Source: Escherichia coli
GTDB lineage: Bacteria > Pseudomonadota > Gammaproteobacteria > Enterobacterales > Enterobacteriaceae
Direction: 5' to 3' (one strand)
DNA: 64,000 nucleotides
NCBI RefSeq assembly: GCF_003334405.1
Contig: NZ_QOWM01000013.1
Shown here: piece by piece, positions 7,484-51,543 of the stretch
Layout of the letters: each line of letters begins with the position of its first letter
How positions within the stretch are numbered: the first letter of the stretch is position 1
Made by a program: the position numbers and the translations under genes
The notes under the pieces: model-generated
The model's database searches: none
The model's input: the letters and a program-made list of their open reading frames with translations, nothing else
What the model was told of the DNA's origin: nothing

Positions 7484-7912
7484 AAACAAAGCGCACGTTG
7501 TTACAATTTACGTTTTAAACCTACGTGCGCAATAACCCAGACTACGCCAACAGAAGTACGTTTCTGGGGCGTGTTTTGTCAGGAGTTTAATCTCGCGTTT
7601 CGATGGTGAGCGGGCGAACCAGGCCGTAAATCACCATTGGTGATCCGAGGCCAATCAGCAATAAACGGTAGATAATTGAAGGTTTAATACGCTTAATCTG
7701 TACTGTGGATGTTTTACTGGAGTTATTCATTAGTTTGGCCAATAGTTCCACTATTTCAATATGATAAACCTCGTCCTGTTGAAAAACCAGACAGCACATT
7801 TAAGAAAGTATATAAAAAACAATATGTCGTTATATAAATAAGGAAATTGCACTGCATCATGGCATTTCATAATATGCGTTAATTGTTCTTTTTTATATTC
7901 TTTGAGGGAAAT

Positions 7913-25164: not shown

Positions 25165-25989
25165 ATGATTTTGACTCCCATACGACGATATGGGGCGATG
25201 ATTCTTATGTTACTCACTCTGGTGTTTTCGAGTGAGGTGTTAGCGAAGACGCACACAACAACAGCGAGTCAAAAGTCCCACTTAACTAAAGCTAGTAATA
25301 AACAGGTAAGCAGTAAACAAGAGTATTCTCGCAATAGTGCAAAGAGTAGTTCACTTCCTGATTTGCGAAAATACCCTTCCGGAACACCAAGGAAAAAGGC
25401 GTTTCTCCGGACCGTAATGCCTTACATTACCAGCCAAAATGCGGCCATTACTGCGGAACGTAACTGGCTCATTTCAAAACAGTATCAGGGCCAATGGTCA
25501 CCTGCTGAGCGTGCGCGTCTGAAAGACATCGCCAAACGCTACAAGGTGAAGTGGTCCGGTAATACGCGAAAAATCCCGTGGAATACCTTGCTTGAACGCG
25601 TAGACATTATCCCCACCAGTATGGTGGCGACGATGGCTGCAGCAGAAAGCGGTTGGGGAACGTCGAAGCTGGCGCGCAACAACAACAACCTGTTCGGCAT
25701 GAAATGCATGAAAGGACGTTGTACCAATGCGCCAGGTAAAGTGAAAGGGTACTCACAGTTTAGTTCTGTCAAAGAATCGGTGAGCGCCTATGTCACTAAC
25801 CTGAATACGCACCCGGCTTACTCTTCGTTCCGTAAATCGCGTGCGCAGCTGCGTAAAGCGGATCAGGAAGTGACTGCCACAGCGATGATTCACAAGCTGA
25901 AGGGCTACTCGACCAAAGGGAAGAGTTATAACAACTACCTGTTCGCAATGTACCAGGATAACCAACGGTTAATCGCGGCGCATATGTAA
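25165..25989 (+). CDS. bax: Bax protein (putative glucosaminidase)
   Basis: 274-aa ORF recognised as Bax. Confidence 0.85.
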   Translation: MILTPIRRYGAMILMLLTLVFSSEVLAKTHTTTASQKSHLTKASNKQVSSKQEYSRNSAKSSSLPDLRKYPSGTPRKKAFLRTVMPYITSQNAAITAERNWLISKQYQGQWSPAERARLKDIAKRYKVKWSGNTRKIPWNTLLERVDIIPTSMVATMAAAESGWGTSKLARNNNNLFGMKCMKGRCTNAPGKVKGYSQFSSVKESVSAYVTNLNTHPAYSSFRKSRAQLRKADQEVTATAMIHKLKGYSTKGKSYNNYLFAMYQDNQRLIAAHM

Positions 25990-49407: not shown

Positions 49408-50106
49408 ATGATCATAAAAAAAAGCGGTGGTCGCTGGCAGCTAAGCCTGCTGGCGAGCGTGGTAATCAGTGCCTTTTTTCTCAACACAGCTTACGCCTGG
49501 CAACAAGAATATATCGTTGATACGCAACCCGGACTTTCCACAGAGCGTTACACCTGGGATAGTGATCATCAACCTGATTACAACGATATTTTGTCGCAAC
49601 GTATTCAAAGTAGCCAAAGGGCGCTGGGACTGGAAGTCAATCTGGCGGAAGAAACCCCTGTGGATGTGACCAGCAGTATGAGTATGGGCTGGAATTTTCC
49701 TTTATATGAACAGGTTACAACCGGCCCGGTCGCGGCATTACATTACGATGGCACAACCACCTCGATGTATAACGAGTTTGGCGACAGTACTACCACGCTG
49801 ACCGATCCGTTATGGCATGCCAGCGTGAGTACCTTAGGCTGGCGTGTTGACTCCCGGCTTGGCGATCTCCGACCCTGGGCGCAAATCAGCTATAACCAGC
49901 AATTTGGCGAGAATATCTGGAAGGCGCAATCAGGCCTGAGCCGGATGACGGCGACAAACCAGAACGGCAACTGGCTGGATGTCACCGTAGGCGCTGATAT
50001 GTTGCTCAATCAAAATATTGCCGCCTATGCCGCGCTAACTCAGGCAGAAAATACCACTAATAATAGCGACTATCTGTATACGATGGGGGTTAGCGCCAGA
50101 TTTTAA
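49408..50106 (+). CDS. yhjY: Uncharacterised signal-peptide protein YhjY (autotransporter beta-domain-like)
   Basis: Start placed at ATG 49408 (MIIKKSGGRWQLSLLASVVISAFFLNTAYA...); C-terminal ...MGVSARF beta-barrel-like terminus. Start position is uncertain. Confidence 0.75.
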   Translation: MIIKKSGGRWQLSLLASVVISAFFLNTAYAWQQEYIVDTQPGLSTERYTWDSDHQPDYNDILSQRIQSSQRALGLEVNLAEETPVDVTSSMSMGWNFPLYEQVTTGPVAALHYDGTTTSMYNEFGDSTTTLTDPLWHASVSTLGWRVDSRLGDLRPWAQISYNQQFGENIWKAQSGLSRMTATNQNGNWLDVTVGADMLLNQNIAAYAALTQAENTTNNSDYLYTMGVSARF

Positions 50107-50220
50107 CGTAACAGTCACAATTGAAACCATTAAATAACAATAGTTGTGGCGATAGTGGGTGCTAACTTACCAAATAATAAATTTGGTGAATAATTGTCGC
50201 GTCATTCATTCCTGAACTAA

Positions 50221-50251
50221 GGCATTTCATTCCGTTCTGATGGCATTTCAT
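50221..50251 (+). promoter_or_regulatory. YpdB (pyruvate-responsive response regulator) binding site in the yhjX promoter
   Basis: Two perfect direct repeats GGCATTTCAT (50221..50230 and 50242..50251) separated by 11 bp, about 85 bp upstream of the yhjX start. Confidence 0.6.
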
Positions 50252-50334
50252 GCCGTTTTTCCCCAGGCATAAAGTGCACTTCGTTATGGTTGTCGGCAGA
50301 GATTTTTCCTTTTTATTACTGCAGGAATACTGCC

Positions 50335-51543
50335 ATGACACCTTCAAATTATCAGCGTACCCGCTGGCTGACACTCATCGGTACTATCATTACCCAGTTT
50401 GCGCTGGGGTCGGTTTATACCTGGAGCCTGTTTAATGGCGCGCTTTCCGCCAAGCTGGATGCGCCGGTAAGCCAGGTCGCTTTCTCTTTCGGCTTGTTAA
50501 GTCTGGGGCTGGCAATTTCGTCTTCTGTTGCGGGCAAATTACAGGAACGTTTTGGCGTTAAACGCGTCACCATGGCTTCCGGCATTTTGCTGGGATTAGG
50601 CTTCTTCCTGACAGCGCATTCTGACAACCTGATGATGCTGTGGTTAAGCGCCGGTGTGCTGGTGGGACTGGCAGATGGCGCGGGTTATCTGCTGACGCTC
50701 TCTAACTGTGTGAAGTGGTTCCCGGAGCGTAAAGGTCTGATCTCCGCGTTCGCTATCGGTTCTTATGGTCTGGGTAGCCTGGGTTTCAAATTTATCGACA
50801 CGCAGCTGCTGGAAACGGTCGGTCTGGAAAAAACCTTTGTGATTTGGGGAGCGATTGCGCTGTTGATGATTGTTTTCGGCGCAACGTTAATGAAAGACGC
50901 ACCAAAACAGGAAGTGAAAACCAGCAATGGTGTGGTGGAGAAAGATTACACGCTGGCAGAGTCGATGCGTAAACCGCAGTACTGGATGTTAGCGGTAATG
51001 TTCCTGACCGCCTGCATGAGCGGCCTGTACGTGATTGGGGTAGCGAAAGATATCGCCCAAAGTCTGGCACACCTTGATGTGGTTTCCGCAGCCAATGCAG
51101 TCACTGTTATTTCCATCGCCAACCTTTCAGGTCGTCTGGTGCTGGGTATTCTGTCTGACAAAATCGCCCGTATCCGTGTTATTACCATTGGTCAGGTGAT
51201 ATCGCTGGTGGGTATGGCGGCCCTGCTGTTTGCACCATTGAATGCAGTGACGTTCTTTGCAGCGATTGCCTGCGTGGCATTTAACTTTGGCGGCACTATT
51301 ACCGTCTTTCCGTCACTGGTCAGTGAGTTCTTTGGCCTCAATAACCTGGCGAAAAACTACGGTGTGATTTATCTCGGTTTCGGTATCGGTAGCATTTGTG
51401 GTTCGATTATCGCCTCACTGTTTGGCGGCTTCTATGTGACCTTCTACGTGATTTTCGCCCTGCTGATTCTGTCATTGGCGCTTTCTACGACGATTCGTCA
51501 GCCAGAGCAGAAAATGTTGCGTGAGGCGCATGGCTCCCTTTAA
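50335..51543 (+). CDS. yhjX: MFS transporter YhjX
   Basis: Start placed at ATG 50335 (MTPSNYQRTRWLTLIGTIITQ...), giving 402 aa; 12-TM MFS protein. Confidence 0.9.
   Translation: MTPSNYQRTRWLTLIGTIITQFALGSVYTWSLFNGALSAKLDAPVSQVAFSFGLLSLGLAISSSVAGKLQERFGVKRVTMASGILLGLGFFLTAHSDNLMMLWLSAGVLVGLADGAGYLLTLSNCVKWFPERKGLISAFAIGSYGLGSLGFKFIDTQLLETVGLEKTFVIWGAIALLMIVFGATLMKDAPKQEVKTSNGVVEKDYTLAESMRKPQYWMLAVMFLTACMSGLYVIGVAKDIAQSLAHLDVVSAANAVTVISIANLSGRLVLGILSDKIARIRVITIGQVISLVGMAALLFAPLNAVTFFAAIACVAFNFGGTITVFPSLVSEFFGLNNLAKNYGVIYLGFGIGSICGSIIASLFGGFYVTFYVIFALLILSLALSTTIRQPEQKMLREAHGSL

Follow-up and report, generated by a model that had tools for sequence, protein, structure and literature searches.

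LytTR regulators, among them virulence regulators like AgrA, bind DNA in an unusual mode. For one member of this family, YpdB, a binding site was reportedly described in the promoter of Escherichia coli yhjX by Fried, Behr and Jung in 2013. LytTR operators generally have two repeats, each 9-11 nt long, with a spacer of 11-13 nt in between, and the family members share no common consensus sequence (PMC4847170). As would probably hold for the yhjX operator, those of AgrA, VirR, PlnC/D and others place their repeats upstream of an activator-dependent promoter.

Expression of yhjX is induced by pyruvate via YpdA/YpdB (PMC5552118, PMC7660256), and conserved motifs in yhjX promoters have been reported too (PMC5552118). 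The operator was dissected by surface plasmon resonance (SPR) with a 58-nt probe that, according to the authors, covers all nucleotides protected from DNase I in earlier footprints (Behr et al. 2016, PMC4847170). The two GGCATTTCAT copies in this probe were named sites A and B. For the phosphomimetic variant YpdB-D53E the KD was about 1.2 nM at site A, with slow on and off rates, and about 21 nM at site B, where both rates were fast. Destruction of site A abolished all YpdB binding; when site B was destroyed, one binding event remained, its on-rate reduced ten-fold. Site A is described as having high affinity and needing to be occupied first, and site B as a lower-affinity, site A-dependent one; the authors put the difference in affinity down to the flanking nucleotides, which also influence expression (PMC4847170). 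In the resulting 'AB-BA' model, site A is filled, then site B, RNA polymerase is recruited and rapid clearance follows, beginning at site B (PMC4847170).

The paralogous LytTR regulator BtsR (YehT), which is likewise pyruvate-responsive, has its site in the btsT/yjiY promoter. As in the YpdB operator, direct repeats with a 21-bp period are found there, made up in the BtsR case of an 8-nt repeat and a 13-nt spacer (control oligo in PMC4847170), but the BtsR motif ACC[G/A]CT[C/T]A is unrelated to that of YpdB.

The direct repeat upstream of yhjX

The window analyzed here is a 64-kb stretch of E. coli DNA. Direct reading and a pattern search bore out the claim of the initial annotation that a motif occurs twice with an 11-bp spacer: two perfect GGCATTTCAT copies lie on the plus strand with TCCGTTCTGAT between them (Table 1), which fits the geometry of LytTR operators. 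The repeat unit can be extended to 15/16 matches, GGCATTTCAT[T/G]CCGTT. Site B ends 84 nt before the ATG of yhjX, which places the repeat in the promoter region of this gene. The annotation had named the motif, its spacer, YpdA/YpdB as the regulatory system and yhjX as the target, and all of these agree with PMC4847170. The comparison extends to the full length of the published probe (CGCGTCATTC...TTTCATGCCG, Table 1 of PMC4847170), which is identical to the window over the entire 58 nt with 0 mismatches, so that neither motif nor position deviates from the described site. On these sequence grounds the repeat at 50221-50251 is almost certainly the YpdB operator that would switch on yhjX, and nothing found contradicts this identification. 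The operator is an already published element, with the same motif, 11-nt spacer and downstream gene; the finding is correct but ordinary and in itself differs in nothing from the description of the YpdB (PyrR) site. What is added below is a 12-mer unit shifted by one base, a third element in phase with the two sites, and a copy in inverted orientation.

Taken alone, sequence statistics lend weak support to the repeat. The window has 10 perfect 10-mer pairs 10-40 nt apart, spread over 8 places, where dinucleotide shuffles yield 2.4 +/- 2.0; because shuffles already give 2.4 per window, a close perfect 10-mer repeat is not rare by itself. An automated repeat search did not list the operator repeat and gave instead an overlapping 14-nt family with 25-nt spacing, and Tandem Repeats Finder reported no array at this place. 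The pair in the yhjX promoter is the sole in-phase motif pair within the window. This unique pair, the identity with the probe and the conservation of the core, both within E. coli and across 80 species, argue together that the repeat is a real element.

Single copies of the motif occur elsewhere in the window. The pattern search found three perfect GGCATTTCAT copies, two in the operator and a lone one at 7861, which has no partner 21 bp away and was rejected as a second site and attributed to chance. An exact copy of the 13-mer TGCATTTCATGCC, the form that site B often takes in other genera, is found at 25695-25707 on the minus strand, antisense within an open reading frame (25165..25989) and with no regulatory context; about 0.01 matches of this kind would arise by chance. 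It was treated as a chance match and not as an operator, as it too is without a partner 21 bp away. Two further perfect short direct repeats of 10-11 nt were observed, TGCTGGCGCTG at 57834-57866 (21 bp apart) and TGGCGCTGGTG at 58939-58977 (27 bp apart).

Table 1. Features of the yhjX promoter region. Information content refers to 80 species; matched genomes are complete E. coli genomes.
Feature	Position	Strand	Details
Upstream 58-mer	50140-50197		Matched in 3986/5426 genomes
Upstream flank	50167-50200		0.27 bits per position
YpdB-probe-identical stretch	50198..50255	+	58/58 to the Table 1 oligo of PMC4847170
Footprint 58-mer	50198-50255		Matched in 5396/5426 genomes; 3600 at 99% identity or more
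Site 0, variant repeat GTCATTCATTCC	50201..50212	+	21 bp upstream of site A; 1.77 bits per position
Spacer site 0/A	50213-50221		0.53 bits per position
Site A, GGCATTTCAT	50221..50230	+	Direct reading, PMC4847170
Site A core, GCATTTCATTCC	50222-50233		1.94 bits per position
Spacer TCCGTTCTGAT	50231..50241	+	First bases TCC conserved with extended site A; rest drifts, length constant
Spacer A/B (between cores)	50234-50242		0.66 bits per position
Site B, GGCATTTCAT	50242..50251	+	Direct reading, PMC4847170
Site B core, GCAYYTCATGCC	50243-50254		1.80 bits per position
Downstream 58-mer	50256-50313		Matched in 4194/5426 genomes
Degenerate inverted 12-mer, GCACTTTATGCC	50267..50278	-	10/12; PWM and sequence comparison
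Probable -10, TATGGT	50285..50290	+	TAnnnT kept in 80 species
Conserved CAG, putative transcription start region	50297..50299	+	99-100% conserved; 7-9 nt after -10
Shine-Dalgarno, GCAGGA	50321..50326	+	GGA (50324-50326) conserved; 8 nt before ATG
yhjX coding sequence	50335..51543	+	402 aa, MFS transporter; annotated as yhjX in a strain with identical intergenic region

Conservation across Enterobacteriaceae

The comparison set comprised 80 YhjX-encoding loci, one genome per species, sampled from Escherichia, Citrobacter, Enterobacter, Buttiauxella, Kluyvera, Kosakonia, Lelliottia, Klebsiella, Cedecea and other genera. The loci were anchored on site B and read at fixed offsets. Since the columns come out clean at these offsets, there is no indel between the elements in any of the 80 species, and the 21-bp period of sites A and B is kept throughout. 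The unit conserved across the 80 loci is the 12-mer GCAYTTCAT[T/G]CC and not the 'perfect' 10-mer. The first base of the 10-mer varies between G and T, with G in 65% of the species at site A and 36% at site B; both C's that follow the 10-mer are invariant, and the 11th base is T in 79/80 site A copies and G in 80/80 site B copies. The perfect repeat thereby hides a conserved asymmetry, which may be related to the published difference in affinity between the two sites. Downstream of the site B core comes a conserved TTTT (50256-50259).

One member of the comparison, CACSKA010000004.1, is titled Chryseobacterium sp. 18061 and carries a Citrobacter-like yhjX locus nearly identical to that of Citrobacter sp. 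18056; this assembly is probably mislabelled or contaminated.

Conservation within E. coli

Of 5426 complete E. coli genomes, 5387 gave a match to the 34-bp core (50221-50254), and in 5386 of them identity over the aligned stretch was 100%. As to further copies elsewhere in the genome, which the initial annotation had proposed to look for, nearly all of these genomes have the core at a single place; no second near-exact copy was found, a result that holds for copies with the same spacer, the search being blind to other spacer lengths. The core and its flanks stand in sharp contrast, the flanks being variable in E. coli (58-mers in Table 1). The 228-bp yhjX intergenic region as a whole is present in 5423/5426 genomes and is only 90-95% identical in about one quarter of them, and up to 27 SNPs have been described among natural variants of this region (preprint, bioRxiv 10.1101/2021.07.18.452581). 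In the divergent intergenic allele of E. coli strain 5-1, site A reads TGCATTTCAT, with its first G (50221) changed to T. Some of the matches to the 34-bp core likewise begin at query base 2, and from these two observations it follows that the first G of site A is polymorphic in E. coli. The perfect 10-mer repeat is not universal in this species; the 12-mer core is.

In E. coli strain DX6, an IS1 element is inserted in site B (about positions 1644-2412 of the locus, L083) and is flanked by a 9-bp target duplication, TGGCATTTC. The insertion puts nearly 800 bp between site A and site B with the promoter, and from the sequence it is predicted to uncouple yhjX from YpdB.

Function of the repeat

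Applied to this locus, the published steps would run as follows. External pyruvate would activate the kinase YpdA, which in turn would lead to activation of YpdB. Activated YpdB would occupy site A first (KD of D53E about 1 nM), a second YpdB molecule would join cooperatively at site B (KD about 21 nM, fast on and off), and RNA polymerase would be recruited for transcription of yhjX; pulse-like expression would arise from the fast release of YpdB at site B. To these steps our comparison would add that the recognition unit is really about 12 nt long, GCAYTTCAT[T/G]CC, and that the 21-bp period, equal to two helical turns, would present the sites on one face of the DNA.

Two other origins of the repeat are conceivable and carry very different weight from the YpdB operator. 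A chance or neutral 21-bp duplication without function would agree with the frequency of close perfect 10-mer repeats (2.4 expected per window against 10 seen) and with the result of Tandem Repeats Finder, but under this explanation cores that are invariant over 80 species would not be expected beside divergent spacers, nor would a core that is fixed in E. coli despite an otherwise unusually variable intergenic region (bioRxiv 10.1101/2021.07.18.452581). This conservation pattern, together with the published binding and mutational data (PMC4847170), already refutes neutral duplication, whose probability is practically nil. It is also very improbable, if slightly less so, that a regulator other than YpdB, such as the paralogous BtsR, is the main binder of the repeats. 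A lowering of yhjX expression by BtsS/BtsR activity has been reported for some conditions (PMC5552118); however, the BtsR site that served as SPR control has another motif, ACCGCTTA / ACCACTCA (PMC4847170), and the literature describes yhjX as a YpdB target whose induction is YpdAB-dependent (PMC4847170, PMC5552118).

Promoter and start of yhjX

The genes around this region are annotated bisC, yiaC, tag, yhjY / yhjX, eptB in a strain whose intergenic sequence is identical. The initial annotation had used the repeat as a positional check on the start of yhjX, and the start call holds: ATG 50335 is invariant in the 80 species, and this invariance together with the conserved GGA of the preceding Shine-Dalgarno sequence sets the start of yhjX at this codon. 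A longer mechanical open reading frame begins at TTG 50290; this start was rejected, as it lies inside the probable -10 element. The annotation is confirmed in that the yhjX start is fixed and the pyruvate-responsive promoter is placed, and no new biology follows from it.

The stretch 50280-50299 is strongly conserved across the species set. It contains TATGGT, a likely -10 element, of which T1 and A2 are conserved in 100% and T6 in 97% of the 80 species (variants such as TATCGT, TACTCT and TATTGT); in those species that were counted by eye, TAnnnT begins 29-30 nt past the last base of the site B core. Judged by this conservation, transcription likely starts near 50297/50298. Counted from such a start, site B would span about -55 to -44, immediately ahead of a poor -35, and site A about -76 to -65; site 0 would fall at -97 to -86, and the inverted copy would cover -31 to -20. 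This geometry offers no hexamer resembling a -35, as would fit an activator-dependent promoter. TAAAGT at 50270-50275 is a possible alternative -10, but it is poorly conserved. Neither -10 candidate was matched in a scan with the sigma-70 consensus, whose single hit (50167-50194) lies in little-conserved sequence upstream of the operator, and no measured transcription start of yhjX was found in the literature searched. Rfam gave no match in 49800-50600, so that the conservation of the leader is not due to a known RNA element.

Additional elements around sites A and B

A position weight matrix (PWM) was built from sites A and B and run over both strands of 81 sequences from -260 to +30. Recurrent matches occur at four places only: site 0, site A, site B and a position on the minus strand, 22-23 nt past the start of the site B core.

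Site 0 and site A have TTCATTCC in common, in register and exactly 21 bp apart. Site 0 is as conserved across the 80 species as sites A and B, and its departures from them are themselves conserved, with G[T/C]C[A/G] instead of GCAT. It falls inside the published probe, for which two sites only are named (PMC4847170). A single binding event was recorded there on the probe with site 0 and site A and none without site A, which argues against site 0 as an independent strong YpdB site in vitro. Site 0 may serve YpdB as a third, weak contact, act as an element for bending or positioning, or be the site of another factor. By our own count, the BtsR oligo also has a possible upstream third copy, GCCGCTCA, at 20 bp and not 21; a three-site architecture common to BtsR and YpdB was rejected, as this copy is out of register.

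The minus-strand match is an inverted copy 11-12 bp downstream of site B, outside the published probe, and it would lie between -35 and -10 if the proposed start is right. At the +22/+23 offset the PWM reaches >=10 bits in 24/81 sequences. An exact GCATTTCATGCC stands at this offset in Yokenella, Pseudescherichia, Kosakonia, Phytobacter and others; in E. coli the otherwise invariant C of TTCAT is changed, and sequence comparison of the yhjX loci showed the copy to be absent from the Enterobacter/Lelliottia group.

These elements suggest that the operator may be larger than described, with three in-phase repeats (0, A and B) for YpdB, or for YpdB and a partner, and, in many genera, an inverted copy within the core promoter that could limit expression when YpdB is plentiful. 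This reading would extend the identification as YpdB operator and not replace it, and we consider it tentative, its chance lying somewhat below even. In its favor, site 0 reaches 1.77 bits per position (1.94 at A and 1.80 at B, against 0.27 in the flank), always lies 21 bp from site A, conserves its own differences (GTCA instead of GCAT) and is within the region that the authors describe as DNase I-protected (PMC4847170), and the inverted copy is the only other recurrent PWM place between -260 and +30 and an exact 12-mer in several genera. Against it, SPR binding was lost without site A though sites 0 and B were intact, and the probe with sites 0 and A and without B gave a single binding event (PMC4847170); moreover, in E. 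coli the inverted copy departs from the motif at the invariant C of TTCAT and falls beyond the DNase I-protected probe, and it is missing in the Enterobacter/Lelliottia group. The upstream flank may also already be treated in Fried et al. 2013. Neither site 0 nor the inverted copy is called a site in PMC4847170. The fullest form of this proposal, a three-repeat in-phase array with a fourth, inverted copy between the -35 and -10 regions in many genera, in which site 0 would help to load or stabilize YpdB and the inverted copy would shut the promoter, is rather unlikely; if true, abundant YpdB would close the promoter through the inverted copy and would thereby contribute to pulse-like expression.

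A model system for LytTR regulators could gain in detail from the 12-nt unit with its fixed 11th base (T in site A, G in site B), the third in-phase repeat and the inverted copy in the core promoter. Along with the likely -10 and a palindrome-like block further upstream, they are modest leads.

This conserved block, GATAGTGGGTGCTAAC (50151-50166, plus strand), reads GATAGT-N4-ACTAAC in most species and is roughly palindromic. The block is situated upstream of site 0, about 35 bp away here and at a distance that varies between species, and by its sequence it looks like a separate dimeric regulator site.
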